Source: an uncultured virus (IMG/VR IMGVR_UViG_3300042893_000829) (lineage: Duplodnaviria; Heunggongvirae; Uroviricota; Caudoviricetes). Taken from it: a stretch of 64,000 nt of DNA. Shown here one piece after another: positions 393-28,238 of this stretch (position 1 is its first letter; every line of letters starts with the position of its first letter). The DNA lies in the IMG/VR virus record IMGVR_UViG_3300042893_000829. One strand, 5' to 3'. The position numbers were made by a program, and so were the translations under genes. The notes beneath the pieces are model-generated. The model did not search any database. It was not told the origin of the DNA and saw nothing but the letters and a program-made list of their open reading frames with translations.

Positions 393-1331
393 CTATATAA
401 TTTCCATTATCTTATTATAAACCGCAAATATTGTTGGGTGACATTCAAATGTTTCTTTTTTTTCAAGACAATTTACTAAAGATGGAATACCTTGTATCGA
501 TTCCCATTCTCTAACACCATATCTTATATCGGAAGCACAATTTAAACCACATCCACCAACTACATAATGGTATTTATATTCTTGTGAACCTTTTCTATAT
601 GGTGATCTAAACTCAGGATTTATTGAGCTACCTAATTGAATGATATCAACATCTGTTGTTCCTGCCAAATGTAATAAACCTGAATCCATTGTGATGAAAC
701 ACATAGATTTATTAATAAGATGCCAAGTTTGAGATAAACTTGTTTGATTCATTAGGTTCATACCCAATTCTATTGGAAAATTAAATACGGGTTTATCAAC
801 ATTGGATCCACCAAGTTCTGATGAATCTTTACCAACTGATACAACGGCAATACCTCTTTCATTTAAAAGTTTTACAAGTAGTTGCCATTTTTTTGCGTCC
901 CACGTTCTTGAGTTCCAGTTCTGAACGGGATGGATTAAAACATATTTTTCAGGTAAACCTTCAATTGGTTCATATTGATCTGAAATGTAATCCAATTCCA
1001 TTTCATCTTTGCTTAACATAAACCCAAGATTAATCGCATGGAATTGTCTAATGTCCATTGCGTTATGTTTATAACAAACCCCATTTGGATGATATCCAAT
1101 ATTAAATGAATTAAAGATTTCGTATTCTTCTCTTTGTTCATCATTTATTGGGTTGAGTGATTCGTTATAAACTACATCCACATATGGGTTATTTGAAAAT
1201 AGATATGGGTGGTGTGTCATCACCGAAATTTTTTTACCGTAAGAATTATAAAGTTTTCTTAACGTTGGTGTTACCGATAAAGTGTCACCTAACGCCCTAC
1301 ACCCTAACACATCAATACAAACATCTTTCAT
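393..1331 (-). CDS. GT9-family (ADP-heptose:LPS heptosyltransferase-like) glycosyltransferase
   Basis: ALGDTL at the N-terminus, YVLIHP...RTW, FITMDSGLLHLAG and a C-terminal Cys cluster (GCGLNC...C...FECHP). Confidence 0.8.
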   Translation of the reverse strand: MKDVCIDVLGCRALGDTLSVTPTLRKLYNSYGKKISVMTHHPYLFSNNPYVDVVYNESLNPINDEQREEYEIFNSFNIGYHPNGVCYKHNAMDIRQFHAINLGFMLSKDEMELDYISDQYEPIEGLPEKYVLIHPVQNWNSRTWDAKKWQLLVKLLNERGIAVVSVGKDSSELGGSNVDKPVFNFPIELGMNLMNQTSLSQTWHLINKSMCFITMDSGLLHLAGTTDVDIIQLGSSINPEFRSPYRKGSQEYKYHYVVGGCGLNCASDIRYGVREWESIQGIPSLVNCLEKKETFECHPTIFAVYNKIMEII

Positions 1332-1382
1332 TCTATAATAATATGAACTTCACAATTAAAATGTATGTTTTATTTTTATAGT

Positions 1383-4300
1383 ATGAAAAAAACTAAAATA
1401 GTTTTAATAAGTTCTTATTGTGATACCAAAGAAAAAATTGATGTTTTAATAAATACCATCAAATCCGTTAAGAGTTACAATTTAGATGTAATGGTAAATA
1501 GTCCTTTACCCTTACCTTCCGATGTGATAAATATGTGTGATTTTTATGTGCAAACAAAAGAAAACCCATTACTTAATTGGCCCGAAAAATCTGTTATGTC
1601 TTGGGTAAGACATACGGACAAAGATAAAGAAATTGTGATTAAAAGATCTGTAATTGATTATGGGTGGGCGGGACTTTACCAAACTAAAAAATTATCTGAA
1701 TATGCTTTAACTTATGACTATGACAGATATTATCATATTATATATGATACGGAAATTGATGATACGGTGGTTTCTACTTTTTTATCTGATAAAATATGTA
1801 ACTTTTTTCCATTTCATGAACACAAAGTTAGTTTACATTTAATTGCGTTAGACAGAGAAAACCTATTGAAATTTTCAAATCTGATTACTTTTGATAGTTA
1901 CCTTAAATTTAATTGTATAGTTGAGAACTGGCTTTATGATACTCTAATTAATAGTAATCTGGATTATAAAATTGAATTAGAAAAAATTGATGATTTAATA
2001 TTATTTCATAAAGACGAAAATTTATTTGATTACTCTGATATTAATGGTTTAGTTTTTTTTATAGTTAAAGATGTTGTAAATAATGATGAGGTTTGTTTAT
2101 ATTTTTACAATAATAAAGAAAAAATAAATGTTTTAATTACCGTAGATGGTGTCGAGTCCTCTTATGATATATCCAATAGGGATATCATTAATTTAGGGTT
2201 TAAACCATGCAATATAAAAAATGTTTTAATATCTTATGATGGAATATCATCGGATATAACAGAAAAAATAAAAAATATTATCCACAATGTTATTGAAATT
2301 ATTATGAATAAATCAAAAATTAAACTATTATATCTTACACCACACCTATCAACAGGTGGAATGCCTCAATTTGTATTAAAAAGAATTCAAGAACTCCAAA
2401 AATACAAAGACCAAATTGAAATATTTTTGGTTGAGTATTCTCAGTTTAGTAACACATACGTTGTCCAACGAGATAAAATAATTAATCTATTAGGTGAAGG
2501 TCATTTTTTTAGTTTAGGTGATACAACCAACACAAAAAGAAAATATGAGTTAATTGATATTATTAAAAACAATGATATTGATATTGTCCATTCTGAAGAA
2601 ATGTTAGAAGGATTTGAAAGTTTTAATAAAATTCCACTACCATTGTTAAATCAACTTTATTCAAATGATAGGTCTTGGAAAATGGTTGAGACTTGTCATA
2701 ATGTTTGGTTTAATCCGCAAACACATAAAAAGTTCAATCCTGAAGCGTATTGTTTTGTTACCCCTTATCATTTAAAGGAAACGTTTTTAAATGAAACACC
2801 AATTAAGTTTTTATCGTTATACCCAATTGAGAATAAGGTAACTAAAATTTTAGAGGAGAATGAAATCTATGGTGATTTTAATCAAGTACCACTTATTGAA
2901 AAAATTAAAGTAAGAAATGAACTTGGTTTGGATATGTTTAAAACTCACGTACTTAATGTTGGGTTATGGACAAGTGGTAAAAATCAAGGTGAAGGTGTTG
3001 AGGTTGCAAGAGAATTAATTGAATCAAATCCAGATATTGAATTCCATTTTATTGGGAACCAAGCTCCAAACTTTGAAGACTATTGGGGTCCAATAATGAA
3101 TAATTTACCATCAAACGTAAAAGTATGGGGTGAGCGTAATGACGTTGAAAAATTCATGACGGCTTGTGATGTTTTAATGTTTAACTCAACTTGGGAATGT
3201 AATCCGTTGGTTGTTAGAGAATCAATCAACTATGGAATGAAAATCCTTGCAAGAGATTTACCACAATACATGGGTATGTTTGATGGATATATAACACCAA
3301 TAGAAGGTGATGTTAAAAACATATCAAAACAATTGGTTGGACTTATCGAAAATAAGGACGTTTATAAAATATTACCTGATAATACATTTGGTGAAGATTT
3401 ATTAAATTTTTATAACGCAGTTACAAATATAAAAATTACCCAAAACAAACCATTAACCAAAGATTATACTTTTGTTAGACATTATGTTAATCAACCTTAT
3501 TTTGAGGTACAAGGAACCACAGAAAACAAATTGAACATTAAATATTATGATGATAACAATAATGTTAATTATCAGAACGAATTATCAATTAATAGTTGGG
3601 TTAAATTAAATAAAGAATACTTTATTAAATGGAGAACAACGGTTGAAGAAAATGGTGAAATCATTTACGATGAGACTTTAAATTTAAAAGATAAACGAGT
3701 ATATATTTCTTTTGGATCAAAATCATTAGGAGATACAATGGCTTGGATTCCTTATTGTGAGGTATTTAGAAAAAAACATGGTTGTCAACTTATAGTATCA
3801 ACATTCCTTAATAGTTTGTTTAAAGACCAATATCCTGATATTGAATTTGTTGAACCTGGTGATTTGGTAACTAATATACATGCACAATATAGATTAGGTT
3901 GGTTTTACAATGAAGATGGTAAATTTGATGCAAACAAACACCCATTTGATTTTAAGAAAATGCCATTACAAAAAACTGCAACCGATATATTAGGTTTAGA
4001 TTATGAAGAAGTTAGACCACTATTAAAATTACCTGATACACCTAAAAAGAAAAAAGTTGGTATTGGGTTTCACTCAACTGCACAATCAAAATATTGGAAC
4101 AACCCTGACGGATGGCAAACAGTTATAGACCATCTTAATAATTTGGGATATGAATGTATGGTCTATTCTAAAGAAGGTGATGGATATATGAATAACCATT
4201 ATCCTGAAGGTGTAACAATATTTAAAGGAGGTAACCTACAAGAAGTAATTGATGACCTATCAAGTTGTGAGTTCTTTATTGGTTTAGGGTCTGGTTTATC

Positions 4301-5858
4301 TTGGTTGGCTTGGGCTTGTAAATTACCTGTCGTTTTGATTTCAGGATTTAGTGAGAAATGGGCGGAAACAACTTTAGATACATACAGAGTTATTAACGAA
4401 AGTGTTTGTCATGGATGTTTTAACTCAGATAGATTAGATGCTGGTGATTGGAATTGGTGTCCACTACATAAGAATACGGATCGGATGTTTGAATGTACAA
4501 AAGAAATAAGTTCCGATATGGTTATTAAAGAAATAAATAAAATAATTAACAAAGAATTTAATAGTGATTTAGTTACTATTATATTGTCCCATGCAAACAC
4601 AAAAGAAAAAAGAAAAATTTTAATAGAACATTTAAAAACAATTAACACAAAAATACTACTATCAACAAATTACCCAATTGATGATGAAATTAAAGTTTTA
4701 TGTGATTACGTCATATATGATGAGGATAACCCAATATTATTGAAGGAGGATTTTAATAAGTATAACGTGTCTTTTTATTTTTATAGTGTCAGAAAAGGGG
4801 TTGAGGTAAGGGAGTCTTTTGATTATGAACATGGGTATGCCGTTTATAAATTAATACAAAATGGATTAACTGAATCAAAAAAATTAGGATTTAAATATTC
4901 TCATATTATAAATTACGATTATTTAATAAACAAAAATACATTACAAGATAATTATAAATTATTAGAAAATTACGATTCCGTATTTTATAGATATAAAAAT
5001 AAATCATATACGCAAGACTCATACTGTACTGGATTTTTTACAGGAAAAATAGATAAGTTAATTAAACCATTTACCCACTATAACACAAAAGACGAATATT
5101 ATAATTATGACGGGTATAATAAAATATTAGAAATAATAACAAAAGATGCGGTAAAAAAACAAAACTTAAATGTTAAAGAACTTTTTTATGAAGATTTAAT
5201 GGAAACATCAATTGTTAATAGAGTAGACGATAACCACAAAAATAACAAAGAAGTAATGGAAGAAAACGAATTCAAAAAAATAAGTGATTATTATAATTGC
5301 GATAAAACATCCACACACACATACCATAACGTCTATTCAAAAATATTTGAAGGGATAAGAGATGAGGTATTTTCGTTATTAGAAATCGGAATTCATGAGG
5401 GAGCATCTTTAAATGTTTGGAGAGACTATTTGAAGAATGCTAATATATATGGTTTAGATATCAATAGGGAATTTTCACATGATAGGGGTCATATTTTTAA
5501 AGGAGACCAAAATAACTTATTTGATTTAGAAAAAATCACATCAGAAATAAAAAGTTGTAAAGTCATAATTGATGATGCTTCCCATAATCCACAACATCAA
5601 ATTAAAACCTTTAATTATCTTTTTGAGAATTTATTAGAAGATGGTGGGTACTATATTATTGAAGACGTTGAAACGTCGTATTGGGATCCATTATCTGAAT
5701 TATATGGGTATGAAATTGGTTATTTAAATGTTGTTGATTATTTTAGTAAATTAACACATAATGTTAATTACAAATACAATGGATTTAATAATACTTTAAA
5801 AATTGAAAGCATTTTATTTACATCAAATTGTATTGTGATAAAAAAATTAATGAAATAA
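1383..5858 (+). CDS. Multidomain glyco-modification enzyme: unknown domain / GT4 / Aah-TibC-type O-heptosyltransferase / paralogous unknown domain / SAM-dependent methyltransferase
   Basis: Likely start is the ATG at 1383 (MKKTKI); the ORF track starts at 1365. GT4 motifs: HLSTGG, VGLWTSGKNQ, ECNPLVVRES. Heptosyltransferase motifs: SLGDTMAWIPY, FFIGLGSGLSWLAWA, VCHGCFN..WNWCP..FECTKEI. Methyltransferase motifs: LLEIGIHEGASL, GLDI, IIDDASH, GGYYIIED. Confidence 0.85.
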   Translation: MKKTKIVLISSYCDTKEKIDVLINTIKSVKSYNLDVMVNSPLPLPSDVINMCDFYVQTKENPLLNWPEKSVMSWVRHTDKDKEIVIKRSVIDYGWAGLYQTKKLSEYALTYDYDRYYHIIYDTEIDDTVVSTFLSDKICNFFPFHEHKVSLHLIALDRENLLKFSNLITFDSYLKFNCIVENWLYDTLINSNLDYKIELEKIDDLILFHKDENLFDYSDINGLVFFIVKDVVNNDEVCLYFYNNKEKINVLITVDGVESSYDISNRDIINLGFKPCNIKNVLISYDGISSDITEKIKNIIHNVIEIIMNKSKIKLLYLTPHLSTGGMPQFVLKRIQELQKYKDQIEIFLVEYSQFSNTYVVQRDKIINLLGEGHFFSLGDTTNTKRKYELIDIIKNNDIDIVHSEEMLEGFESFNKIPLPLLNQLYSNDRSWKMVETCHNVWFNPQTHKKFNPEAYCFVTPYHLKETFLNETPIKFLSLYPIENKVTKILEENEIYGDFNQVPLIEKIKVRNELGLDMFKTHVLNVGLWTSGKNQGEGVEVARELIESNPDIEFHFIGNQAPNFEDYWGPIMNNLPSNVKVWGERNDVEKFMTACDVLMFNSTWECNPLVVRESINYGMKILARDLPQYMGMFDGYITPIEGDVKNISKQLVGLIENKDVYKILPDNTFGEDLLNFYNAVTNIKITQNKPLTKDYTFVRHYVNQPYFEVQGTTENKLNIKYYDDNNNVNYQNELSINSWVKLNKEYFIKWRTTVEENGEIIYDETLNLKDKRVYISFGSKSLGDTMAWIPYCEVFRKKHGCQLIVSTFLNSLFKDQYPDIEFVEPGDLVTNIHAQYRLGWFYNEDGKFDANKHPFDFKKMPLQKTATDILGLDYEEVRPLLKLPDTPKKKKVGIGFHSTAQSKYWNNPDGWQTVIDHLNNLGYECMVYSKEGDGYMNNHYPEGVTIFKGGNLQEVIDDLSSCEFFIGLGSGLSWLAWACKLPVVLISGFSEKWAETTLDTYRVINESVCHGCFNSDRLDAGDWNWCPLHKNTDRMFECTKEISSDMVIKEINKIINKEFNSDLVTIILSHANTKEKRKILIEHLKTINTKILLSTNYPIDDEIKVLCDYVIYDEDNPILLKEDFNKYNVSFYFYSVRKGVEVRESFDYEHGYAVYKLIQNGLTESKKLGFKYSHIINYDYLINKNTLQDNYKLLENYDSVFYRYKNKSYTQDSYCTGFFTGKIDKLIKPFTHYNTKDEYYNYDGYNKILEIITKDAVKKQNLNVKELFYEDLMETSIVNRVDDNHKNNKEVMEENEFKKISDYYNCDKTSTHTYHNVYSKIFEGIRDEVFSLLEIGIHEGASLNVWRDYLKNANIYGLDINREFSHDRGHIFKGDQNNLFDLEKITSEIKSCKVIIDDASHNPQHQIKTFNYLFENLLEDGGYYIIEDVETSYWDPLSELYGYEIGYLNVVDYFSKLTHNVNYKYNGFNNTLKIESILFTSNCIVIKKLMK

Positions 5859-5895
5859 TAAATGGGATCTATATAGATAACAGAAAATAAGTTTT

Positions 5896-5923
5896 AACCC
5901 TCACCTTTAAAGTGGGGGGGTTT
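5896..5923. terminator. Probable bidirectional intrinsic terminator between convergent genes
   Basis: Imperfect GC hairpin aaccctcac-ctttaaa-gtgggggggttt between stop codons at 5858 and 5938. Confidence 0.6.
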
Positions 5924-5937
5924 ATATTATAGTTTTA

Positions 5938-8900
5938 TTAAGCGGTTACCGCTCTTATAACTGCGAACGATAAAACAATTGCCTGACCCAAATTACCCGT
6001 TGTAACATTTCTCACTGAAATAACCGCAGAACCTCCTGATGGAAATGCATTTAAATTGTAAGAAGCGCTTGTACCAACAGAGGTGTGTTGGAGAACTACA
6101 ATGTCTGTTGCACCAATCGTAGTATTAGTTAAAGTGAAGGATACCGTTGTGTCGGCGTTCAATGTTGCGCTGTGCATCACTATTTGTCCTGTTGGTCTAC
6201 TAAGAGTGACCCCTGTTGATTTACTTGTTAACTGAGTTACAGTTCCACCAGCACCTGTATCGTAACCTAATTTTGTCGATGAGCCAATCGAATAAAGATT
6301 ACCAACTGTTGTTGTTGTGTTTCCAGTATTGATAAATCTAAAACCAGCATTTGAACCGTTAGCACCAATAACTAAGTTTTCACCCGTAGTTGAAACCATA
6401 GCGGTATCTCCAAGAACACTGTTATTATTGTATCCTCCCGCACTTACATATGGTGAGAAAAGCACACCTTCACTCGATGCATTAATAATACGAGCACTAA
6501 TTCCATCAGTAACTCTAGTGCCTGAAGTAACATCTAATGGATATGTGGGCGCACCTGAGCTACCAATTTGTAAGAAATTATTTATTCCAATATTTCCAGT
6601 AGTAAAAATAGACATTCTATTATTACTTCCAAGAACTGCGGTTGCACCATAAGATATGGTAAATGCTTGGTTGGTGTTATCAATACCAACCGCAACTGAG
6701 TTTGTTCCGGTTGACGGTATAAACCTTACAAATGGGTCATTTGTAGCACGGTCTGTCATTGATATGTTTGGAGATGCACTATCTTTTTCTAACGTTAAAG
6801 TTGTACCATCAAATATTGCTCCTGACTCTCCTTGTAGTGTGTTTGCAGTACCTGTGGCAGTAACTAAATAATTGTTTGCGTTGGAATTTATTACTACGCT
6901 AGCGCCTGAAGTACCGTTGGTACCCGAAGTTCCATTTGTACCTGAAGACCCATTCGTACCACTAGACCCATTCGTACCACTAGTTCCATTCGTACCACTA
7001 GTTCCATTAGTTCCATTAGTTCCATTAGTCCCATTAGTACCATTTGTTCCTGAAGTACCATTTGTTCCATTAGTACCATTAGTACCATTCGTACCTGACG
7101 TGCCATCTAGTCCATTAAAGACCCATGAAACAGTATATTCGGCAGTGTCAGTTAACGACCCTGAACCAGTGACAAAAGTAAGTGATATCTCCCAATATGT
7201 GATATTATCTGTTATAACACCAATCTCATAGATTCCAATTACACTATTATTAGATAATTCTGTTATTTGTAGATAACCTTTATTACCCGCCGATATTAAA
7301 GTGTTTAATGAGTCAAACCAATCGTAATAATTTGTTGTATTAATATCCTCAATATTAATAGCAATTGCTGAAATTGTTGATATTATTTGTGTATCCGCAA
7401 GAAAAGTCGTTGAAGAAGGACTTGCAGGTATTGGAAAAGTTCCGTCATAAAACCATCTTCCACTATTTGATCCATCATTACCCACTTTTCCAGGATTTCC
7501 ATTATTTCCTGAAGTTCCATCTGTTCCTGAAGTTCCATCTGTACCTGAAGTTCCTGCCTGTGCCATTAATGCCCAATTACCACTAAATGGAGGAGTTGGT
7601 ATCCCCGTATTACCATTTATTAATGAAATATAAGAACTACCGGCAAATTGAACGACATCATTTATATTGTAAGTGGACATTAAGTTCCATGAACCTTGCC
7701 AATTAAATGAAATGCCACTAGTTCCGTTAGTACCTGATGTTCCATTTGTTCCGTTTGTACCATTTGTTCCCGAAGTTCCATTAGTTCCTGAAGTTCCATT
7801 AGTGCCATTAGTTCCGCTCGTACCATTAGTTCCGTTAGTTCCTGAAGTTCCGTTTGTACCATTAGTCCCTGAAGTACCATTCGTTCCCGACGTACCATTA
7901 GTTCCATTCGTACCTGATGTTCCGTTCGTTCCTGAGGTTCCATTCGTACCATTAGTACCGCTTGAACCATTTGTTCCATTAGTACCCGATGTTCCATTTG
8001 TTCCTGATGTTCCATTAGTACCATTAGTTCCGTTAGTACCGTTTGTTCCTGATGTACCATTTGTTCCGTTTGTACCTGAAGATCCGTTAGTACCATTTGT
8101 ACCACTAGTTCCGTTCGTACCGTTAGTACCTGAAGTTCCATTAGTACCGTTAGTTCCATTCGTACCGTTAGTACCTGAAGTTCCGTTGGTACCTGATGTG
8201 CCGTTAGTTCCCGAAGTTCCATTCGTACCGTTAGTCCCATTGGTTCCACTAGTTCCATTTGTTCCGTTAGTACCAGATGTTCCATTAGTACCGCTTGTAC
8301 CATTCGTTCCGTTAGTTCCATTAGTTCCTGAAGTCCCATTAGTACCATTTGTTCCCGAAGTTCCGTTGGTTCCATTAGTACCTGATGTTCCATTAGTTCC
8401 GTTTGTACCATTGGTTCCATTTGTACCATTAGTACCCGATGTTCCGTTAGTCCCATTTGTTCCGCTAGTACCATTTGTTCCATTAGTGCCCGATGTACCG
8501 TTCGTACCTGAAGACCCATTAGTTCCATTCGTACCGTTTGTTCCCGAAGTTCCGTTGGTGCCTGAAGATCCTGAGTCACCATTTACTCCGCTAGTACCAT
8601 TTGTGCCCGATGTTCCATTAGTACCTGAAGTCCCATTAGTACCATTAGTACCATTAGTACCATTAGTACCATTAGTTCCCGATGTTCCATTAGTCCCTGA
8701 AGTTCCGCTAGTCCCATTTGTTCCTGAAGTTCCATTAGTTCCCGAAGTACCATTTGTTCCGTTAGTCCCTGAAGTTCCGTTAGTTCCATTGGTCCCGCTC
8801 GTACCATTTGTACCGCTAGTTCCATTAGTACCCGATGTACCGTTAGTTCCATTCGTTCCGTTTGTACCTGAAGTCCCATTAGTCCCATTCGTTCCATTAG

Positions 8901-14367: not shown

Positions 14368-14379
14368 ATCTTTTTTTAA

Positions 14380-15303: not shown

Positions 15304-15334
15304 CGTATTTATTTCTATAAATACAATGAACAGG

Positions 15335-16669: not shown

Positions 16670-16671
16670 AA

Positions 16672-17490: not shown

Positions 17491-17495
17491 AATTA

Positions 17496-18377: not shown

Positions 18378-18397
18378 AATTTTATTATATAAATTAA

Positions 18398-20042: not shown

Positions 20043-20082
20043 ATCTTAAATATAAAAAATCAAATGTAAAAGTGTATTAAAT

Positions 20083-20110
20083 AAAAAAACCCCTCTTTGT
20101 GGGAGGGGCT
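20083..20110 (-). terminator. Intrinsic terminator after the adhesin-like genes
   Basis: A-run followed by cccctc-tttgtgg-gagggg on the + strand, i.e. a hairpin plus U-tract on the - strand. Confidence 0.7.
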
Positions 20111-20137
20111 AATAATATTTTTAATTATTATATTATC

Positions 20138-21790
20138 CTAAGATGACCACCTTGCACGACATCTCCAATTAATTATTGTGGATGTATCACCTTCATCGTT
20201 ATTTTGAACACTAACAATTATAGTGTCGTCGGCATAAGTCAAAACACTTGTAACACTTGAAGGAAATGTTGACTGGTTTAGATTTATAGTAGGTCCGTCT
20301 GCTGACAATTCATACAATGAACCTGTATCTCCAGATAATAAATATCCAGATGTAAATTCTTGTGTTAATCCTGATAAATAATTGTTATCATAAGCATTAC
20401 ACCAAATTTTTACATTTGTTGTTCTAAATTCTTGTGGTGTGATAAGTATTTCTATAATGTTTGCACTAGTACCTCCAGTTATTGTAACATCTGCAGTGTT
20501 ATATCTAAAGTTGTTTAAATCTACGTAAGATCCAGAATCATTATTATTGGTATAAATATAAATCTGACCGTTATCAACACTAATTTGGGACTCATTATTG
20601 TCGTCAGATGATGTGAGTGTAATTCCGCCTGATCTTAAATTAAACAATGAATTTGACGTAACTCCAGATTTTGTAACACCCATATTAATTTCTCCAGAAA
20701 TAGATGTAAAATCATTTACCGATAATGAAGCAAACTCTAAATTAGATTTTATCAAGGTTCCGTTTGTCATAACAATATCACTACCAGTTTCATTACCAAT
20801 TGAAATTACTTCAGATAATGATGGTGTATTACCAGTAAAATCATTACCAACAATAACCAAACCATTTGAGTCAATGCCTAAACTATTAACTGAAGTGCCT
20901 GTTGATATATTTCCAATATTTAAATAAGGAACATAAACTGTGTCATCTGTTGTTCCTGTAATACCAGAACCACCAATAACCACAATTCTATCTCCCATAA
21001 TAACCGAATTATTTGATATCGCAAAAGAACAATCCCCAATTACGGTATTTGTATATCCCCCAGATACGGTTGACCCATATCCTGAAACGGTATTTCCATA
21101 TCCCCCAGCAATAACTGAATTATATTTTATTGCGGTGTTAAATGAACCACCCCCGATTGTTACACCATCTAAATAAGCTTTATTACAAATACCTCCAGAT
21201 ATTGTGGCGTAAGTCCCATAGTTTTGATTTCTTGTACCACCGGCAACCACAGAAAAGTTTGATACCGATGTGTTTGAGTTACCCCCACCAACAACAGAAG
21301 AACTTCCTAAGTTTGCATTATTACAACCACCACCAACAATTGAGAAGTCAGCAATAGATGTGTTGTTTAAACCACCTCCGATTATCCCATAAAGGGAATT
21401 AACCGTATTATTTTCCCCACCACCAACTACGGTACATTCACAAGTGGAAACGTTAAATGTTCCACCAGCAACAACCGATAAAGAATCAGATGCGGTATTA
21501 TTTTTACCACCACCAATAAATGAAAACTCACCATTGGCAACGTTTAATGAACCACCAAGAATCCCAGAACAAAATCCTGAAGATGTGTTTAAAAACCCTC
21601 CACCAACAACCGAGTTATAACAAGACGATGTGTTATTTTGTCCACCACCAACAAATGAATATTTTCCTGATGAGGTATTTTGATAACCACCTGTTACTGT
21701 CGCATATTGTCTAATTGCGGTGTTTTGATTATCACATCTTACTGTTGATGTTAGTCCACCAATAGGGTCGTTTATAATAACATATGCCAT
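20138..21790 (-). CDS. Adhesin/tail-fibre-like protein with 15-residue SxVxGGxxN beta-roll repeats
   Basis: About 16 repeats such as YSFVGGGQNNTSS. Its N-terminus (MAYVIINDPIGGLTSTVRC) is paralogous to that of 21855-25943. Confidence 0.75.
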   Translation of the reverse strand: MAYVIINDPIGGLTSTVRCDNQNTAIRQYATVTGGYQNTSSGKYSFVGGGQNNTSSCYNSVVGGGFLNTSSGFCSGILGGSLNVANGEFSFIGGGKNNTASDSLSVVAGGTFNVSTCECTVVGGGENNTVNSLYGIIGGGLNNTSIADFSIVGGGCNNANLGSSSVVGGGNSNTSVSNFSVVAGGTRNQNYGTYATISGGICNKAYLDGVTIGGGSFNTAIKYNSVIAGGYGNTVSGYGSTVSGGYTNTVIGDCSFAISNNSVIMGDRIVVIGGSGITGTTDDTVYVPYLNIGNISTGTSVNSLGIDSNGLVIVGNDFTGNTPSLSEVISIGNETGSDIVMTNGTLIKSNLEFASLSVNDFTSISGEINMGVTKSGVTSNSLFNLRSGGITLTSSDDNNESQISVDNGQIYIYTNNNDSGSYVDLNNFRYNTADVTITGGTSANIIEILITPQEFRTTNVKIWCNAYDNNYLSGLTQEFTSGYLLSGDTGSLYELSADGPTINLNQSTFPSSVTSVLTYADDTIIVSVQNNDEGDTSTIINWRCRARWSS

Positions 21791-21853: not shown

Positions 21854-21854
21854 G

Positions 21855-24800
21855 TTAAAGAGATATTTTTAATGTACCACTATCATTCCATACGTATCCG
21901 GTTATCCCAGGATCAGTAGTTGGTAAACCATCCATTCTTACTTCAGTAGTCGGTTGTCCACCTCCACTTACAGTAAAGTTATTAACATATGTGTGATATG
22001 GTCTATCAGAAGTTATATTACAACCAACAATATGTGAGTGAATACAAGTCGCTTTGTTTGAACACCCTCCGATAATTGATGTGAAATCTCCTGCCGATGT
22101 GTTAAGAGTTCCTCCACCAACAGTTGCGTTTAAACCTACCGATGTGTTAGATAAACCTCCAGATACAGTACCGTTGGTTGACGATGATCTAACAACGTTA
22201 GATCTACCACCACCAATGTAACCATACTGACCACAAACTTTATTTCCACAACCACCAAATATACTACCAAAAGATGATGGAGATAATACCATATTATTAT
22301 AACCACCCCCAATTGACCCATAAAGACATGAGTTTGTGTTTAATCTACCTCCACTAATCACAGAACCACAAGCGGTTAATGTATTAATATTACAAGCACC
22401 ACCCCCAATTGTTGAATTCCATATTAAAGATTGGTTACTAAATCCACCAGCAACTACGGTTGAAACCCCTGATGAAATATTTAACATACCCCCACCAACT
22501 ACGGTTTGATAACATGATGATGTATTACTACAACCACCACCAATAAATGAGTAATATCCAGAACTTGTATTAGATCTACCTCCCGCAATTGTTGAATAAG
22601 GGGAAGCGGCATAGTTATTAAAACCACCTAAAATTGAAGATCCGTTAGAATATGAAGAGTTAGTACAACCTAACGCAATTGACGAATTTGCTGAAGCTAT
22701 GTTTGAGTTTCCAGCCCTTATTGAAGAACCTACTCCAGTACCCGCAACTATAACACCAGTTAATCCAGTAAATGTAATTCCACCAATAGAAACTGTTCCG
22801 TTTTGTCTTTCTAAGTTTAAGATACCAGTACTATTATCAAATGTACCTCCAGTTACATAATAATCATTATTTAAGAAACCAGTTGCGGTAACAACGTTTC
22901 CATTATTTAATGATAAATCTAAAGTTCCGTTAGAGTATGTTGCTCCAGTTACAAAATTATTTAATGTTTGGAATCCTAATACACTGATTGGGGCTTGTCC
23001 ATTATTTTGGAGTAATGTTAATTCTCCAGTTGACGCACTATAAGTAGCTCCGGTTAAGAATGTATCCGTACCACCTGTATAAAGTCCATTTATTGTAACA
23101 GAACCATTTTGTCTATCTAATGTTATTGAACCATTAGAATAAGTTCCACCAGTTACATAGTAATCTGTGAATCCTGTAATTGTTACTGTTGATCCGTCAG
23201 TATTTGTTAAAGTTAAATCTCCAGCAGCAAAAGTACCACCAGTTAAGAACACATCAGTGTATCCAGTTGTAAACCCTGACACATCAACTGTTTGTCCAGA
23301 TGTGTTTGTAAATGTTACAACACCTGTACTAGAATTATATGTACCTCCGGTTAAACCTAAGTCAGTTGCTAAAATCCCTAAACTTACCGTATAATCGTTA
23401 CCATCGTTAACGGATGCCGTTAATGTAAATCCACTAGTGTCAAATGTTAAACCAGTTAAGAAATAATCTGTTGTTGACGAACCAACAACAACATTACCTG
23501 AACCATCAACCGCTAAGTTTGAAACTGGAGTTGTTGCTCCTACTGTTTGAATATTTAAATATGGTACGTAAACAGTGTCGTTATTAGTTGATATAATATT
23601 TTGACCACCAACAACTGCACTTCTAGTTCCAACTGCGGTATTATTACAACCACCAAGTATCATTGAATATAAACCGGATGTTGTATTTAATCTACCCCCA
23701 CTAATCACTGACCCACAAGCGGTTGGTAATGTTGTGTTACACGCACCACCACCAATTGTTGAATTCCATATTGATGCTGCGTTACGGTAACCTCCACTTA
23801 CTGTTGTTGATACTCCAGAAGATGTATTACTGTAACCACCACCAATTGATGCGCTTACGCAAGTTGATTTATTATATCCACCACCACCAATTGATGAATA
23901 GCACCCTAGTGATATGTTATAAAGTCCACCACCAATTGATGACTGAGTCCCTAATGATGTATTATTCCATCCACCTCCAATTGAAGATTGAACCCCTAAT
24001 GATGTGTTAAAACACCCACCACCAACAGTAGCTTGATTATTACAAGTTTTATTACCCCAACCACCAACAATACTTGACATATAACCTTGTGTTTGGTTTG
24101 AATAACCTCCACCAACAAATGAATACGCACCAGTCGCAGAGTTAAAATAACCACCCGCAACTGTATCGGTAACGCTGTTTGCAAGGTTGGATACACCTCC
24201 ACCAACAGTAGCACCATACTGTGTTGCTACGTTATTATAACCACCAATTACTGTTGAATATTGTCCCGAAGCACTGTTATTATTATTTTTTCTAACTGTT
24301 GAGGATCCTCCTGTCCCCGCTATAATAACTGCGTCATCAATTCCAGAAATATTAACAGTACCGTTTTGTTGTTGTATTGTTATTGTTCCTGTTGATGGTG
24401 TGTAATATCCTCCAGTTACGTAAACATCTGTGTATCCAGTTAAGAAACCGGTAACATTAAATGTTCCTCCACTACTATTTGTAAATGTTGCGGTACCACT
24501 GTTAAGGTCATAAGTACCTCCAGTAATTGTCATATCTGAAGAAAGTATACCTAAATTAACCGTATCGGTAAATCCGTCATTTCTTTCTATTGTTAAATCA
24601 TAATTAAGAGTATCAAAAGTCATTCCGGTAACATAAATGTCCGTAAACCCTGTTGTAAACCCGGTTATTAAAACAGATTGTATTTGACTATCTAACGTTA
24701 AAGTTCCCGTATTGTTATCATATGTTCCTCCTGTAACATATGAATCTAATGCCGTAAATCCTGTGATTGTTACTGTTGAACCATCAGTATTTATTAAAGT

Positions 24801-25943
24801 TAAATCTCCAGCGGCAAAAGTTCCACCAGTTAAAAAAACATCTGTATATCCGGTTGTAAAACCTGATACGTCAACAGTTTGTCCAGAAGTATTAGTAAAT
24901 GTAACAACACCAGTATTAGGGTTGTAAGTACCTCCGGTTAAACCTAAGTCGGTTGCTAAAATACCTAAACTTACACTATAAGAATTACCATCGTTAACGG
25001 ATGCCGTTAATGTGAATCCACTATTATCAAAAGTTAAACCAGTTAAGAAATAATCTTGTAGTCCATTAATAATAACATTACTACCATCATTATTATCTAA
25101 TGTTAATGTTTGTGTATTATAATCTAACGTACCTCCGGTAACAAAAATATCTTGTGTTAAAAATCCTCCAGTTGTTAAACTAACTCCATTGTTGTTATCT
25201 AAAGTTAATAAACCAGTGTTAGTGTCAAAAGTAAAACCTGTTGCAAATACATCTTGAGTAATAAATCCTCCAGTTGTTAGATTAACACCATTGTTATTAT
25301 TCAAAGTTAATAAACCTGTGTTATTGTTAAAAGTAAGACCTGTTGCAAATACATCATTACCAACAACAACGTTTCCATTTAAATCTATTCCTAAATTATT
25401 TAGAGATGTTGTTGACCCGACAGTATCAACATTTAATTGTGGCACATATACTGTGTTTGATTGAGTACCAATAATATTACTACCACCAAGTACAACACTT
25501 CTAGTTCCAACTGCGGTATTATAAGAACCACCAACAACTGATGAATAATTACCAAGAGTTGTATTAAATTCACCATTACCTATAAATGAATCACACCCAA
25601 GACCGGTATTGTTATCTCCTCCTGTTACCGTAGAACCAGATCTAGAAACGTTATTATCACCACCAAGTACAATTGATTTTGTATCATTTGCGGTATTACA
25701 ATAACCACCAGCGATTACAGAATATCTACCTATTGCACTATTATAAGAACCACCACCAACGGTTGACCCATATCCGGTTGATTTATTATAAGCTCCTCCG
25801 GCGATTATAGAGTAAGTATTATTGGAAGTATTTCCTCTACCTCCACTTACCGTTGAATACACCGCAGCAGCTGAATTTCCTTGTGAACATCTAACGGTAG
25901 ATGTAGTTCCACCAGTTAAATCGTTAATTATTACAAAAGCCAT
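21855..25943 (-). CDS. Long adhesin/tail-fibre-like protein with alternating SxVxGGxxN beta-roll blocks and DxxVTGGTY...GxLTL shaft repeats
   Basis: 1362 aa with three GGxxN blocks and two blocks of roughly 33-aa TGGT repeats. Ends in GLPTTDPGITGYVWNDSGTLKISL. Confidence 0.8.
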   Translation of the reverse strand: MAFVIINDLTGGTTSTVRCSQGNSAAAVYSTVSGGRGNTSNNTYSIIAGGAYNKSTGYGSTVGGGSYNSAIGRYSVIAGGYCNTANDTKSIVLGGDNNVSRSGSTVTGGDNNTGLGCDSFIGNGEFNTTLGNYSSVVGGSYNTAVGTRSVVLGGSNIIGTQSNTVYVPQLNVDTVGSTTSLNNLGIDLNGNVVVGNDVFATGLTFNNNTGLLTLNNNNGVNLTTGGFITQDVFATGFTFDTNTGLLTLDNNNGVSLTTGGFLTQDIFVTGGTLDYNTQTLTLDNNDGSNVIINGLQDYFLTGLTFDNSGFTLTASVNDGNSYSVSLGILATDLGLTGGTYNPNTGVVTFTNTSGQTVDVSGFTTGYTDVFLTGGTFAAGDLTLINTDGSTVTITGFTALDSYVTGGTYDNNTGTLTLDSQIQSVLITGFTTGFTDIYVTGMTFDTLNYDLTIERNDGFTDTVNLGILSSDMTITGGTYDLNSGTATFTNSSGGTFNVTGFLTGYTDVYVTGGYYTPSTGTITIQQQNGTVNISGIDDAVIIAGTGGSSTVRKNNNNSASGQYSTVIGGYNNVATQYGATVGGGVSNLANSVTDTVAGGYFNSATGAYSFVGGGYSNQTQGYMSSIVGGWGNKTCNNQATVGGGCFNTSLGVQSSIGGGWNNTSLGTQSSIGGGLYNISLGCYSSIGGGGYNKSTCVSASIGGGYSNTSSGVSTTVSGGYRNAASIWNSTIGGGACNTTLPTACGSVISGGRLNTTSGLYSMILGGCNNTAVGTRSAVVGGQNIISTNNDTVYVPYLNIQTVGATTPVSNLAVDGSGNVVVGSSTTDYFLTGLTFDTSGFTLTASVNDGNDYTVSLGILATDLGLTGGTYNSSTGVVTFTNTSGQTVDVSGFTTGYTDVFLTGGTFAAGDLTLTNTDGSTVTITGFTDYYVTGGTYSNGSITLDRQNGSVTINGLYTGGTDTFLTGATYSASTGELTLLQNNGQAPISVLGFQTLNNFVTGATYSNGTLDLSLNNGNVVTATGFLNNDYYVTGGTFDNSTGILNLERQNGTVSIGGITFTGLTGVIVAGTGVGSSIRAGNSNIASANSSIALGCTNSSYSNGSSILGGFNNYAASPYSTIAGGRSNTSSGYYSFIGGGCSNTSSCYQTVVGGGMLNISSGVSTVVAGGFSNQSLIWNSTIGGGACNINTLTACGSVISGGRLNTNSCLYGSIGGGYNNMVLSPSSFGSIFGGCGNKVCGQYGYIGGGRSNVVRSSSTNGTVSGGLSNTSVGLNATVGGGTLNTSAGDFTSIIGGCSNKATCIHSHIVGCNITSDRPYHTYVNNFTVSGGGQPTTEVRMDGLPTTDPGITGYVWNDSGTLKISL
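23167..25056 (-). repeat. Intragenic duplication of about 300 bp (about 23167-23469 and 24754-25056)
   Basis: Both copies encode near-identical DYFLTGLTFD.SGFTLTASVNDG...LATDLGLTGGTY...GGTFAAGDLTL.NTDGSTVTITGFT. DNA differences are mostly synonymous. Confidence 0.9.
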
Positions 25944-26051
25944 TTTGTTTGTTTGTTTTTAATGTTTATTTAATTTCTTTTATTTGATAAATATCTCAAT
26001 AAAAGATAAATAAAGAATTAATCTAAAAAAAAACGAAAATTTTATATGTAA

Positions 26052-28238
26052 CTAAATTAAAAAACTTGTTGTGGTGGTTGTGGTATGTCCCCCAATAGTG
26101 TAAGTAAAATCATTTGGTTCACAAACTACTATATCACAATCAGGACAAAATGGGTTAAACATCCTAAATTTTTCCTTTAATAAATTAAAGTTGTGTCTTA
26201 TTTCTGAAGCATTTATTGGTTCAACATACATTCTAAATTGTGAAATACCACCTTCAAAAGTACCCCCAAATTCTTTTTCTAATAAAATATTTGTTGTTAA
26301 TCCGGATAATGATGTTCCGGACAAAATTGATGTTGGAAAACACTCTGGGTCTTGAATATAATTACTATAAGGAAGGGTACAAGAAGAAAATGTTAAATTT
26401 TCGTGAAGACCCTGAGTTCCCCCTCCCCAAGATATATTAAAAGGAACCCCTAATTGTTTTTCTTTATCGGTATTTAAAGCTCTTGGTATCACTTCCTCAA
26501 AGTCCTCAATTGTATAATGTAGTTTACCGTTAACATATATTTTTAATCTACCATCCCTAAATTTTTTATCTTCAATCCAACTATAATTAAGGTTAACAAT
26601 ATCAACACTTAATTCTATTTTTAACCCATTAGTATAAGGAGGTTTAATTAGTTCAACGGAATTGTTTGCCAAACTTTCTAAAGGTTCTGTTTTTGTAATA
26701 TTACCTAACCCACCTCTGTACCATAAGTCACAATTGTCCAAATATGAATATCTTTCCCATACAACATCAAGTAAAAACCAATGTTCTAAATTTAAAAATT
26801 CTGGATTAATATTTTCACAATAAGAGTATATTGGAGGAGTACACCATTCTTGTATTGTATAACCTGTAACAAATGTTTGACCTGTTATTGTGGTTCCTGT
26901 TGTAATACAATCTCCGGTAAACTTAAGAACTTTAATTCCAATACCAGGATTTTTAGGGTCTCCACATAATTTAAATGAAATATTATTTGACATAGAATCA
27001 TATAAAGGGTCTTTCTCACAAGTATCCTCAATTGAAGTGTAACCTGTTGGGGTGCAATCCAAACAATCCAAACAAGTATCGCAAACAGCACAACTTGGAG
27101 TACAAACCGGAACAATGTGATCACAAGTTGGTATTGGACTTGGTGTAGGTGTTGGTGTAGGTGTTGGGGGTATTATTGTTACACAAGGGTGATTAAAACA
27201 TTCCCACCCACAAGTTAAACAAGCGGAGTCTCCACATCCACACCCACAAGTTAATTTTTTTTCAGTTAACCCACCACATTTGTCACAACCATAATTTAAA
27301 TGAGGGTCATATTGACCATTTATAGATCTTGGGGGATACACAAAAATACATCTACTATTTGTTATAGTTTCATTACAACAAGCGCAAGTTTGTAAACAAT
27401 TGGATAAAGGGGTGGTAACTCTAGTATAACCGGTAAAACAATTTGGTGTTCCATCGGCGTAATGATAAAACTTATTTTCCGCCCTAGTCCCCAAATAAAA
27501 AAAAGTATTTTTGTTTTCAGGATAAATTAAATTTAAAGTTGTTTCTCCAGTTGAGGGACCAAACTCATCGCAGAATCTTGGTTTTAAAACCATTTCAACA
27601 GACCAACCTTTATTTATTCTTTCCGGTAAAATTTCATAATCATAACCAAAAAGTTTATAAAATCCCTGATAGAACCCACCATACAATTCGTGGTATTTAC
27701 CTGCGGTTGGGTCTATCTTACTAACAACCTCATATAAGGTATAATTAGATATACCAGAAAATTTATTATATTCACCAGTATAACCAGTTACTTGTATTAA
27801 CTTTAACCTTCTATCAACGTGTAACCTATCAAATTTAACGGTGTCGTCAAATAAACCATTTGTAAAAAATAATTCTTCTCCAGACATTTTATTAACCAAA
27901 CCATTATCAATACCTGTTAACCCAATATCACAAACGGTTGATGCCGAATAATTACAAAAATTTTCTTTTTTTGGGTTATAATAATTTTGGGAAACAAATA
28001 TATTGTTTGGGTTAAAATTTTTATATGTTAATGTTAAATCCTGTGCGGTTAATGGGTTATCAATATCAAAGTATACCGGTAACTTATTACCATATGTTTC
28101 TGCAATTAAATATGGTGAAAATATAACCTCCTCATAATAATCCCTTTCATCTGAAGTTAGGGACATGTCCATACTATCAGAAATCATATTAAGATTATAT
28201 TTTTTATAAACGTATTGGTTAATATTTTGTTGTGCCAT
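26052..28238 (-). CDS. Virion-associated protein with Cys-rich segments, PT linker and LamG/concanavalin-like C-terminal elements
   Basis: CGCGC/CxxC-rich tract around IPPTPTPTPTPSP, then GRLKIYVNGK...FEGGISQFRMYVEPINASEI (LamG-like). Confidence 0.6.
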   Translation of the reverse strand: MAQQNINQYVYKKYNLNMISDSMDMSLTSDERDYYEEVIFSPYLIAETYGNKLPVYFDIDNPLTAQDLTLTYKNFNPNNIFVSQNYYNPKKENFCNYSASTVCDIGLTGIDNGLVNKMSGEELFFTNGLFDDTVKFDRLHVDRRLKLIQVTGYTGEYNKFSGISNYTLYEVVSKIDPTAGKYHELYGGFYQGFYKLFGYDYEILPERINKGWSVEMVLKPRFCDEFGPSTGETTLNLIYPENKNTFFYLGTRAENKFYHYADGTPNCFTGYTRVTTPLSNCLQTCACCNETITNSRCIFVYPPRSINGQYDPHLNYGCDKCGGLTEKKLTCGCGCGDSACLTCGWECFNHPCVTIIPPTPTPTPTPSPIPTCDHIVPVCTPSCAVCDTCLDCLDCTPTGYTSIEDTCEKDPLYDSMSNNISFKLCGDPKNPGIGIKVLKFTGDCITTGTTITGQTFVTGYTIQEWCTPPIYSYCENINPEFLNLEHWFLLDVVWERYSYLDNCDLWYRGGLGNITKTEPLESLANNSVELIKPPYTNGLKIELSVDIVNLNYSWIEDKKFRDGRLKIYVNGKLHYTIEDFEEVIPRALNTDKEKQLGVPFNISWGGGTQGLHENLTFSSCTLPYSNYIQDPECFPTSILSGTSLSGLTTNILLEKEFGGTFEGGISQFRMYVEPINASEIRHNFNLLKEKFRMFNPFCPDCDIVVCEPNDFTYTIGGHTTTTTTSFLI

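Follow-up and report, generated by a model that had tools for sequence, protein, structure and literature searches.

The 64,000-nucleotide stretch analyzed here (the window) corresponds to the minus strand of the 83.9-kb IMG/VR record IMGVR_UViG_3300042893_000829, bases 11391-75390; the completeness of that record is estimated at 29%. The window is best explained as the hypervariable fibre island of a T4-like freshwater phage of ca. 290 kb. Positions 393 to 28,238 encode large fibre proteins together with glycosyltransferases, a sulfotransferase, and putative sulfate-activation enzymes. Gene content and comparisons with related viral contigs lead us to favor, with slightly better than even confidence, the view that these genes form two separable fibre-modification modules that happen to lie next to each other here. 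Module A is a GT4-TibC(-methyltransferase) enzyme beside Ser/Thr-saturated collagen-like open reading frames (ORFs). Module B is a sulfotransferase with a GT9-fold glycosyltransferase (p293), with or without an adenosine 5'-phosphosulfate (APS) kinase, a small nucleotidyltransferase (NTase), and a DUF2061 protein, beside fibres resembling the UspA1 adhesin head. The first enzyme set probably sugar-coats a giant collagen-like fibre (COL), and the second probably sulfates the adhesin-like fibres.

The two modules were compared in two scans of viral contigs, one anchored on the TibC-like domain (318 relatives, 80 loci kept, 47-100% identity) and one on the sulfotransferase (195 relatives, 80 loci kept, 62-100% identity). 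Each locus extended at most 10 kb per side. Dereplication at 97% anchor identity gave 47 TibC and 66 sulfotransferase clusters, and those with at least 5 kb on both flanks were counted (27 and 44, respectively). A Gly-X-Y ORF of at least 16 triplets occurred in 25/27 TibC-anchored versus 5/44 sulfotransferase-anchored lineages (Fisher p 4e-12; 37/47 versus 5/66 without the flank filter). The two adhesin-like fibres, f550 and f1362, had homologues in 41/44 sulfotransferase-anchored versus 2/27 TibC-anchored lineages (Fisher p 1e-13). Companion genes followed the same division. Near the sulfotransferase were p293 (40 of 44), the APS kinase (24), the NTase (24), DUF2061 (23), and a TibC-like gene (13); near the TibC-like domain were the GT9-family gene GT9a (15 of 27), a lectin protein (14), a PF11397 enzyme (10), HtrL (8), and the sulfotransferase (2). 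The original prediction had asked whether genes with G-T-(N/S) repeats accompany TibC-like, sulfotransferase, and APS-kinase genes alike. The pairing with TibC-like genes was borne out, and that with the sulfotransferase/APS-kinase block was not, since this block tracks the UspA1-head-like fibres.

Genome-level searches pointed in the same direction. Among TibC-bearing records at least 93% complete, a sulfotransferase homologue was found in one of eight, with positive controls matched at 50% and 100% identity. One of the sulfotransferase-negative records is a 292-kb genome that encodes a big enzyme 97% identical to that of the window and a 2266-aa Gly-X-Y ORF. A TibC-family match was present in two of five large sulfotransferase-bearing contigs, the three non-matching ones being only 64-76% complete. 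With a sulfotransferase in just one of eight near-complete module-A genomes, a single fibre that is both glycosylated and sulfated is unsupported. Thus, the proposal that the phage encodes both acceptor proteins and the machinery to modify them gains support from the pairings as far as fibre-directed modification in general is concerned, but not in its specific form of one fibre glycosylated, methylated, and sulfated.

A cassette boundary can be placed between p307, a protein with a (Pro-Thr)n (PT) linker, and the PF11397 gene. In the window, the slot between these two genes holds COL, the big enzyme (BIG), GT9a, and the lectin-domain protein LEC. Ten dereplicated relatives carry p307-like and PF11397-like genes, and their slots (0.5-9.4 kb) are occupied by other fibre genes, with COL, BIG, or GT9a in none of them. 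As slot contents differ in 10/10 relatives, the collagen-like fibre and the TibC enzyme are gained and lost as one cassette. The window phage is a minority case, with a module-A cassette directly beside the sulfation block. For the fibre gene beside the sulfotransferase, at least three placements were seen: upstream or downstream on the strand of the sulfotransferase, and downstream on the opposite one. The island is organized as follows.

1..363, minus strand: LEC, N-terminus of a 325-aa PT-linker protein that runs past the left edge of the window and ends in a ConA-like lectin domain (full ORF L084:29-1006; Laminin_G_3, 60.9 bits)
393..1331, minus strand: GT9a, GT9-family glycosyltransferase of cassette A (Pfam Glyco_transf_9, PF01075, 55.4 bits, cut-off 22)
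1365..5858, plus strand: BIG, 1497-aa five-domain enzyme (TIGR04414, 293.5 bits)
1365-2309, plus strand: BIG domain X1 (residues 1-315)
~2310-3434, plus strand: BIG domain GT4
3528-4544, plus strand: BIG TibC-like domain (residues 722-1060)
4560-5234, plus strand: BIG domain X2, a paralogue of X1 (E 1e-8)
5274-5687, plus strand: BIG sugar O-methyltransferase domain, MycE/TylF-type (MycE, PDB 3ssm, E 7e-13)
5898..5918, no strand assigned: terminator-like hairpin between the convergent BIG and collagen genes
5938..14367, minus strand: COL, 2809-aa proline-free G-T-(N/S/D) collagen-like tail fibre (Pfam Collagen, PF01391, 859 bits)
14380..15303, minus strand: p307, with a 70-aa conserved N-terminal domain, a (Pro-Thr)n linker, and a variable C-terminal domain
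15335..15775, minus strand: DUF2061 predicted membrane protein (Pfam, 50.5 bits)
15759..16223, minus strand: NTase, 154-aa HxGH nucleotidyltransferase (CTP_transf_like, 33.4 bits; fold of NMN adenylyltransferase and phosphopantetheine adenylyltransferase, NMNAT/PPAT)
16220..16675, minus strand: short 151-aa APS kinase (Pfam APS_kinase, 68.5 bits)
16672..17490, minus strand: sulfotransferase dependent on 3'-phosphoadenosine 5'-phosphosulfate (PAPS) (Sulfotransfer_3, 77.7 bits)
17496..18377, minus strand: p293, GT9-fold glycosyltransferase (structure model and Foldseek)
18398..19306, minus strand: TibC2, divergent TibC-like protein (TIGR04414, 125.8 bits)
19299..20042, minus strand: GT8 glycosyltransferase (Pfam, 79.5 bits)
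20088..20110, minus strand: intrinsic-terminator-like hairpin between f550 and GT8 (8-bp stem, 5 GC pairs, T-run)
20138..21790, minus strand: f550, fibre with ~14-residue Gly/Asn/Ser repeats, related to f1362 (their homologues overlap)
21855..25943, minus strand: f1362, fibre with three Gly/Asn/Ser repeat blocks, two of them matching the UspA1 head (PDB 3pr7, 3ntn)
26052..28238, minus strand: f728, PT-linker protein rich in Cys, heading the minus-strand block (from sequence)

Every gene that had been listed from the sequence was recovered in place by ORF, Pfam, and NCBIfam analyses. These include the PT-linker proteins (p307, f728, and LEC), two adhesin-like fibres (f550 and f1362), two GT9-like enzymes (GT9a by Pfam, p293 by its modeled fold), GT8, the sulfotransferase, the GT4/GT1 and O-methyltransferase domains inside BIG, and two TibC/Aah-type domains, that of BIG above the family cut-off of 200 bits and TibC2 below it. 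Two descriptions had to be amended. The Thr/Ser/Asn-rich fibre gene is present, but its Gly-X-Y, collagen-like nature had been missed; and the PAPS-pathway genes comprise an APS kinase but no canonical ATP sulfurylase, an NMNAT-like NTase being found instead.

The hairpin at 20110-20088 sets off a unit running from GT8 to COL, in which all genes are co-directional, intergenic gaps do not exceed 31 nt, and the gene junctions from 20088 to the end of COL are free of any comparable terminator hairpin; the weaker hairpins on the minus strand (9186-9166 and 13926-13913) both lie within COL. An alternative in which all enzymes converge on COL and the PT-linker proteins, yielding a single proteoglycan-like fibre, draws on this layout, since GT8, TibC2, p293, the sulfotransferase, the APS kinase, the NTase, DUF2061, p307, and COL are closely packed into one unit here, and on the adjacency of modules A and B in 2/27 TibC-anchored lineages. 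The fibre classes found beside the sulfotransferase, its absence from seven of the eight near-complete TibC-bearing genomes (including the relative with the nearly identical big enzyme), and the presence of other fibre cassettes after the sulfation block in close relatives all run counter to it. We regard this alternative as quite improbable; a single proteoglycan-like fibre is possible in this particular phage but is not a general rule.

Turning to module A under the two-module reading, COL is composed to 81% of Ser, Thr, Asn, and Gly, and contains 666 Gly-X-Y triplets in runs of at least eight, nearly all of them G-T-N, G-T-S, or G-T-D. Its architecture combines a unique 215-aa N-terminal domain, tail-fibre-type interruptions, and a C-terminal domain. 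The non-repeat interruptions match phrog_5073 (tail fiber, E 2.7e-14) and phrog_1806 ("collagen like minor tail"). Proline occupies 0.1% of the X/Y positions, as measured on the 100%-identical sibling copy (L087), so that COL falls short of the proline or charged-residue content by which helices of this kind are stabilized. Searches of viral contigs with the N-terminal domain matched the sibling contig only, and orthologous fibres are therefore not traceable through that domain.

The composition of these fibres was examined in 37 ORFs of at least 40 triplets, drawn from 31 of the 37 positive cluster representatives; among the six omitted, five had a best Gly-X-Y ORF below 40 triplets and one (L125, 46 triplets) was left out by oversight. 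On average, the X position is Thr (69%) or Ser (22%) and the Y position Ser (59%), Asn (31%), or Asp (5%), with proline at X and Y together not exceeding 3% in any of the 37. Repeats from the lineages farthest from that of the window read G-S-S or G-T-S instead, with just 0.2-2 N-x-S/T sequons per 100 residues. What stays constant is thus that every triplet offers a hydroxyl side chain, a feature that fits an O-linked modification of the TibC type and speaks against N-glycosylation. Fibre genes beside the TibC enzyme are freely swapped, each replacement being again a Ser/Thr Gly-X-Y protein, a pattern that inherited synteny alone explains less readily.

A cultured phage, Microcystis phage Mel-JY01, shows the pairing as well. 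Its 1226-aa protein annotated as "methyltransferase FkbM" terminates in a TibC-like domain that shares 51% identity with that of the window, and ca. 1.7 kb upstream of it, on the same strand, is a G-[ST]-[ST] ORF of at least 1016 aa that the record leaves unannotated. The module-A claim is therefore directly testable. In the Mel-JY01 record (L247, PP395634.1), this ORF spans positions 2-3052 (+) and runs off the start of the linear sequence; the annotated minus-strand "hypothetical proteins" at 1-651 and 739-2298, with a proline at every third residue, resemble shadow frames of the collagen-like ORF.

The enzyme partner of COL matches the curated TibC/Aah equivalog TIGR04414 over BIG residues 725-1060 with 293.5 bits in the window and 297.5 bits in the record (cut-off 200), and aligns to residues 40-386 of PDB 4rap (E 4e-70). 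Residues that define TibC were mapped through the HMMER alignment onto 45 of the 47 dereplicated lineages, the identical sibling (L087) and a lineage cut at a contig end (L154) being omitted. As described in the TibC structural study (PMC4358343), Asp110 is the catalytic base, Arg286, Trp305, Thr226, and Lys230 bind the sugar, Cys339, Cys342, Cys358, and Cys370 form an iron finger, and Pro300 governs heptose stereoselectivity. Without exception, the 45 BIG-type lineages keep the equivalents of Asp110, Thr226, Lys230, Trp305, Phe368, and the four iron-binding cysteines. The Asp110 equivalent, D790 in BIG, is also kept in 15/15 TibC2 orthologues and 6/6 distant forms, and the four cysteines in 15/15 TibC2 orthologues. 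Judged by score and catalytic apparatus, the TibC-like domain of BIG is a true member of the bacterial autotransporter heptosyltransferase (BAHT) family. Its alignment begins at TibC residue 40 (profile position 31), with the GT4 domain upstream; in TibC, the N-terminal beta-barrel (residues 1-97) is needed for activity. TibC2 retains the equivalents of Asp110, Trp305, and the four cysteines and is without those of Thr226, Lys230, and Arg286; GT9a matches TIGR04414 weakly (36.9 bits, under the cut-off). For domain X1, an atlas search returned WavE/GT25-like proteins at 0.88-0.90, which serves as a lead only.

In the mechanism that we propose for module A, the cassette formed by COL, BIG, GT9a, and LEC would act in the cytoplasm of the infected cell. 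The TibC-like domain of BIG would place the first sugar on Ser/Thr hydroxyls of the (Gly-Thr-Asn/Ser)n fibre, the GT4 domain, the two WavE-like domains (X1 and X2), and GT9a would extend the glycan, and the C-terminal MycE/TylF-type domain would O-methylate it. The product would be a glycan-coated, proline-free collagen-like fibre of ca. 0.57 micrometres if triple-helical, given that the collagen triple helix rises by 0.286 nm per residue.

For module B, the sulfotransferase is recognized at 77.7 bits (Sulfotransfer_3; PF13469/PF00685; cut-off 27). Its nearest solved sequences, TPST1/2, match weakly and over the N-terminal half only (E 6e-6). Residues R13, G15, S16, R115, D116, and S123 are invariant in 73/73 homologues, and we take R13/G15/S16 and R115/D116/S123 to be the PAPS-binding loops. 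Sequence searches with p293 gave no match in Pfam or PDB, including a 30-sequence profile run against PDB, and the fold search alone succeeded: a model with a predicted local distance difference test score (pLDDT) of 89.3 had as its top Foldseek matches the GT9 structure 3tov, WaaF, WaaC, and TibC (E 3e-11 to 3e-7). The fibre f1362 aligns to the UspA1 adhesin head in two regions, residues 589-830 (PDB 3pr7, E 3.3e-22) and 52-181 (PDB 3ntn, E 1e-7), so that the label "adhesin-like" is correct in a specific sense. Pfam scans of f1362 and f550 found no membrane-anchor domain; a trimeric autotransporter combines a head with a C-terminal anchor, and here the head alone was matched. In the proposed scheme, p293 would glycosylate f550 and f1362, in close relatives together with TibC2 and GT8, and the sulfotransferase would then sulfate the sugar, or possibly a tyrosine, on these fibres, using PAPS made by the short phage APS kinase and by the 154-aa NTase acting as a minimal ATP sulfurylase.

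The last of these assignments departs furthest from family annotation. The APS kinase scores 68.5 bits against Pfam PF01583 (cut-off 21.1) and 68.4 bits against TIGR00455, whose equivalog cut-off is 138.7. Its gene overlaps that of the NTase by 4 bases, the two are fused in one 298-aa ORF in another phage locus (L056), and PHROG 10255 spans both halves. Proteins of the NTase family measure 112-165 aa. Searches among cellular genomes found 134 NTase relatives, of which 80 loci were kept. They reach 77% identity in metagenome-assembled genomes (MAGs) of Flavobacteriales and extend to Nitrospiraceae, Acidobacteriota, candidate phyla radiation (CPR) bacteria, Marinimicrobia, and archaea. In 58 of the 80 loci, the gene immediately upstream, in the same orientation, encodes an APS-kinase homologue. 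Pfam analysis of 88 of 153 neighboring ORFs, from 17 of 22 chosen cellular loci, revealed further sulfur-related contexts. Flavobacteriales carry a full-length APS kinase (240 bits) followed by the NTase and, once, by an inositol-monophosphatase-family gene. Two Nitrospiraceae have sulfite reductase, PAPS reductase, then the NTase, and two CPR bacteria encode APS-kinase-NTase fusions. In a Methanosarcinales archaeon, the fusion is in reverse order and is followed by an inositol-monophosphatase-family gene, and a Chitinophagaceae genome encodes a DUF2061-APS-kinase fusion, the NTase, and a sulfotransferase. The inositol-monophosphatase-family neighbors are presumably CysQ-like. Whole-genome searches of five NTase carriers found neither Sat (PF01747) nor CysD (TIGR02039) in four, including chromosomes of ca. 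4.5 and 4.7 Mb. Read parsimoniously, this context suggests that the NTase adenylylates sulfate and is a candidate for a new class of ATP sulfurylase, which is a functional reading of gene context and not a family assignment.

Instead, the NTase might adenylylate NMN or some other substrate, or supply the APS-kinase-like protein with a different adenylylated donor for 3'-phosphorylation, in which case the phage would rely on host APS. Such a role is suggested by its best sequence and fold relatives, which are archaeal NMN adenylyltransferases and PPAT. The NTase gave no PF01747 (Sat) match, its NCBIfam and PDB matches were to NMNAT/PPAT, and Sat was absent from the Foldseek ranks shown for its model (to rank 50). 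One Nitrospiraceae MAG has a canonical Sat besides the NTase, and in Thermodesulfobacteriota and Dadabacteria no sulfur context was seen around the gene. Each of these points weakens the ATP sulfurylase assignment. The alternative has to account, on the other hand, for adjacency or fusion with true APS kinases kept across phyla and in archaea, for the position after sulfite reductase and PAPS reductase, for the sulfotransferase and inositol-monophosphatase-family neighbors, and for the four carrier genomes that encode an APS kinase without Sat and CysD. We consider it unlikely.

Some observations on the same genes stand apart from this question. The phage APS kinase is closest to archaeal and Marinimicrobia forms (40-51% identity) and is 25-34% identical to full-length Flavobacteriales/Bacteroidota kinases, and the phage NTase is 70-77% identical to Flavobacteriales NTases. 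Since kinase and NTase differ in their nearest relatives, the pair looks mosaic in origin. DUF2061 is a predicted two-helix membrane protein that accompanies the APS kinase and NTase genes in 23/44 phage lineages and is fused N-terminally to the APS kinase in Chitinophagaceae (L215:3303-4001); no function for it was found in the accessible portions of the open-access literature that mention its name.

Gene content, family memberships, folds, catalytic-residue conservation, and comparative pairings are direct observations. Several considerations count against the two-module reading built on them. We infer every acceptor, every donor, and the ATP sulfurylase activity from the genes. Adjacency within the fibre island is partly inherited synteny, so that lineage counts are not fully independent, and 2/27 TibC-anchored lineages have no Gly-X-Y ORF. 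The sulfation genes share a transcription unit with COL, which makes sulfation of COL possible in this phage. The known acceptors of TibC are beta-helices rather than collagen-like repeats, and TibC in a fused form may fail to assemble into the dodecamer. At the Arg286 position, the 45 lineages have Val (40), Leu (4), or Ile (1), leaving three of the four sugar-binding residues of TibC, and the Pro300 position is Gly in 40/45. The donor pocket thus differs systematically from that of TibC, and heptose as donor is an assumption. The 84-kb record showed no genes for ADP-heptose synthesis; an epimerase in it scores 67 bits against an HldD cut-off of 274.6. Finally, GT9, GT8, HtrL/YibB, and WavE-like proteins belong to families of lipopolysaccharide (LPS) core synthesis.

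This last point, together with the WavE/GT25-like lead, is the starting point for a different explanation, namely that the enzymes remodel the host envelope, altering LPS core, O-chain, or capsule during infection and so blocking superinfection or the sticking of progeny to debris, with the placement in a fibre island reflecting merely a host recognition cluster. In pelagimyophages, tail fibres are mixed with many glycosyltransferases, GT8 being the commonest, and O-chain modification has been proposed, according to PMC7029224. The second sugar-gene cluster of the window (31-45 kb), which has no adjoining fibre genes, would also be in line with such a role. Yet BIG passes the curated cut-off of the protein-directed TibC/Aah equivalog, and the family of the PF11397 enzyme (245.8 bits) acts on polypeptides. 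The enzyme types are each associated with one particular fibre class, a fibre travels in a single cassette with its enzyme, and the fibre repeats are Ser/Thr-saturated in every lineage. The 84-kb record yielded no flippase, polymerase, ligase, or Gtr-type membrane component. On this evidence, we rate host-envelope remodeling as rather unlikely.

T4-like phages classically glucosylate their own DNA, and DNA glycosylation is listed as the usual role of phage glycosyltransferases in PMC12619734, a moraphage paper on another lineage. Modification of phage DNA by the present enzymes, or their being unrelated auxiliary metabolic genes with no common target, is nevertheless hardly credible, as TibC, GT9, GT8, PF11397, and the sulfotransferase belong to no known DNA-modifying family and the fibre-class-specific pairings would be left unexplained. 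The TibC and PF11397 families act on polypeptides, and the enzymes look directed at fibre proteins rather than DNA. A bolder proposal, which we put forward tentatively and hold to be doubtful, is that the NTase represents a third, hitherto unrecognized class of ATP sulfurylase serving many Sat/CysDN-less bacteria and archaea and, in the phage, a self-contained PAPS pathway for sulfated glycans or tyrosines of the adhesin-like fibres, and that, independently, the TibC-derived multi-enzyme builds methylated O-glycans needed to fold or stiffen a proline-free collagen-like fibre. The two together would amount to a virus-encoded "glycocalyx" on a bacteriophage.

The sugar-gene island extends past both ends of 393..28238. 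To the left of the window are the remainder of LEC, the PF11397 "GlcNAc" transferase, and an HtrL/YibB-like protein. The PF11397/GT60-like enzyme and PT-linker proteins may be a third enzyme-acceptor pair. The transferase gene (L084:1297-2544; 245.8 bits, and 563 bits against phrog_24687) sits among (Pro-Thr)n-linker proteins (window 14380-15303 and L084:4254-5255). GT60-like genes accompany PT-linker ORFs in 22/27 loci versus 14/86, a comparison confounded by the synteny of p307 and x333 with GT60. Among 19 loci matching p307, the N-terminal ~70-95 residues alone are conserved in 16 and the C-terminal domain alone in three. No family match was found for f728, and a relaxed Pfam scan of f550, f728, p307, and the COL N-terminal domain gave none. 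The second sugar-gene cluster (31315-45082, +) encodes GT4-like, GT2/GT92-like, and double GT2 proteins, a class-24 methyltransferase, two FkbM methyltransferases, an NAD-dependent epimerase/dehydratase, a GT1-like protein, and a GT2, with PhoH and dUTPase interspersed. Promoter scans were uninformative, both for the T4 late-promoter motif TATAAATA (15 matches versus 15.6 expected, two copies just upstream of f728) and for sigma-70 (89 versus 79 expected). At 30197-30577 (+), just past the divergent promoter region at ~28240-28290, is a 126-aa protein with a borderline WYL-domain match (21.5 bits versus 21.8).

The window (GC ~30%) carries T4-type genes for the major capsid protein Gp23 (244 bits), portal Gp20 (252 bits), prohead protease, and terminase, and no tRNA genes were found in it. 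As related contigs measure 270-436 kb, the phage is a jumbo T4-like phage. Its capsid protein is at most 44% identical to any record of the phage collection searched, the best cultured matches being Mel-JY01 (42%) and Flavobacterium phage immuto (40.5%), and megablast of the 14.3-28.3 kb portion against cultured phages gave no match. A Bacteroidota host is plausible. The 614-aa major capsid protein (54610-56454, -) is covered by its best Gp23 profile stretch over residues 358-599 only, which points to a large extra N-terminal or inserted region. Outside the window, the record encodes a 684-aa ClpB/Hsp104-type double AAA+ chaperone (L085:3022-5076, -; AAA_2, 219.7 bits; ClpB_D2-small, 70 bits).

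The 5.8-kb stretch at 14300-20100 recurs in lake-water and freshwater metagenomes, with at least half of the sampled words in 15 runs, three of them possibly the source. Three non-source lake or freshwater DNA runs contain pieces of the locus with no differences, and contigs of two of them (X6 and X8) bridge the collagen gene and p307. The arrangement is therefore real and not an assembly artefact, and the habitat is freshwater. In a lake metatranscriptome (X20), short contigs with 2-3 differences map to the p307/DUF2061 junction, p293, f550, and f1362, and may be DNA carry-over. The DNA of the p307 PT linker (14674-15160) reaches a summed contig depth of 316-470 versus 4-10 elsewhere, with many joints, in lake metagenomes; similar PT-linker coding repeats are thus widespread in lake communities.

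Searches of open-access papers and bioRxiv found no description of TibC-type enzymes in phages, of phage-encoded virion sulfation, or of an NMNAT-like ATP sulfurylase. Should the fibres be modified, the determinants of phage host range would come to include a post-translational chemistry that sequence-based predictions of receptor binding ignore, and virion glycosylation would extend from a few actinobacteriophages to abundant freshwater jumbo phages. An O-glycan-dependent proline-free collagen would represent a novel way of stabilizing a triple helix. In genomes with an APS kinase but without Sat/CysDN, a minimal ATP sulfurylase would close an apparent gap in sulfate activation, changing sulfur-assimilation annotation. 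What the window contributes is the two modules in direct juxtaposition, the tests of reciprocal pairing and at genome level by which they are told apart, and a cassette boundary between p307 and the PF11397 gene.

The closest known counterparts of module A are the TibC-TibA and Aah-AIDA-I systems of E. coli (BAHT; PDB 4rap/4rb4; PMC4358343), in which a cytoplasmic GT-B enzyme is encoded beside a repeat-rich surface fibre that is hyperglycosylated on serine. The phage domain shares with them a score above the family cut-off, the catalytic Asp, three of the four sugar-binding residues, and the four-Cys iron finger. It differs in being fused to a GT4, two extra domains, and an O-methyltransferase, and in having a hydrophobic Arg286 equivalent and a Gly at Pro300. 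BAHT enzymes are dodecameric, use ADP-heptose, and act on beta-helical autotransporters, whereas the candidate acceptor here is a collagen-like Gly-X-Y fibre. The genomic setting is that of the "host recognition cluster" of pelagimyophages and cyanomyophages (PMC7029224), likewise hypervariable, T4-like, and aquatic, with tail fibres, collagen/YadA-domain proteins, and many glycosyltransferases. In contrast to the reading preferred here, that paper interprets the enzymes as host O-chain modifiers, and its text has no occurrence of the terms sulfotransferase and heptosyl. As for the UspA1/YadA-type trimeric autotransporters, f1362 aligns to the UspA1 head but is a phage fibre in which Pfam found no membrane anchor.

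Virion glycosylation as such is already known in phages. Freeman and colleagues reportedly found in 2023 that mycobacteriophage glycosyltransferases decorate the phages' own structural proteins, at the C-termini of capsid and tail-tube subunits. Unlike these phages of Actinobacteria, the present one combines giant-fibre candidate acceptors with TibC/GT9 enzymes and a sulfation pathway. Glycosylated collagen-like fibres occur in BclA of the Bacillus anthracis exosporium, in Mimivirus fibrils, and in Riftia cuticle collagen, with O-glycans on Thr-rich Gly-X-Y repeats; in Riftia, galactosylated Thr is reported to stabilize a hydroxyproline-poor triple helix. In those systems proline is present and Thr stands at Y, whereas here proline is 0.1% (at most 3% in relatives), Thr/Ser is at X, and the enzymes are unrelated. 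A sulfotransferase with a dedicated PAPS supply is known from rhizobial NodPQ-NodH, and bifunctional PAPS synthases likewise provide that supply. The phage module resembles these in pairing a sulfotransferase with its own sulfate-activation genes, in the order of adenylyltransferase then 3'-kinase, and in its fusions. It differs in that the candidate adenylyltransferase is a 112-165-aa NMNAT-like protein and not Sat or CysDN, and a new class of ATP sulfurylase would, if true, be categorically new.

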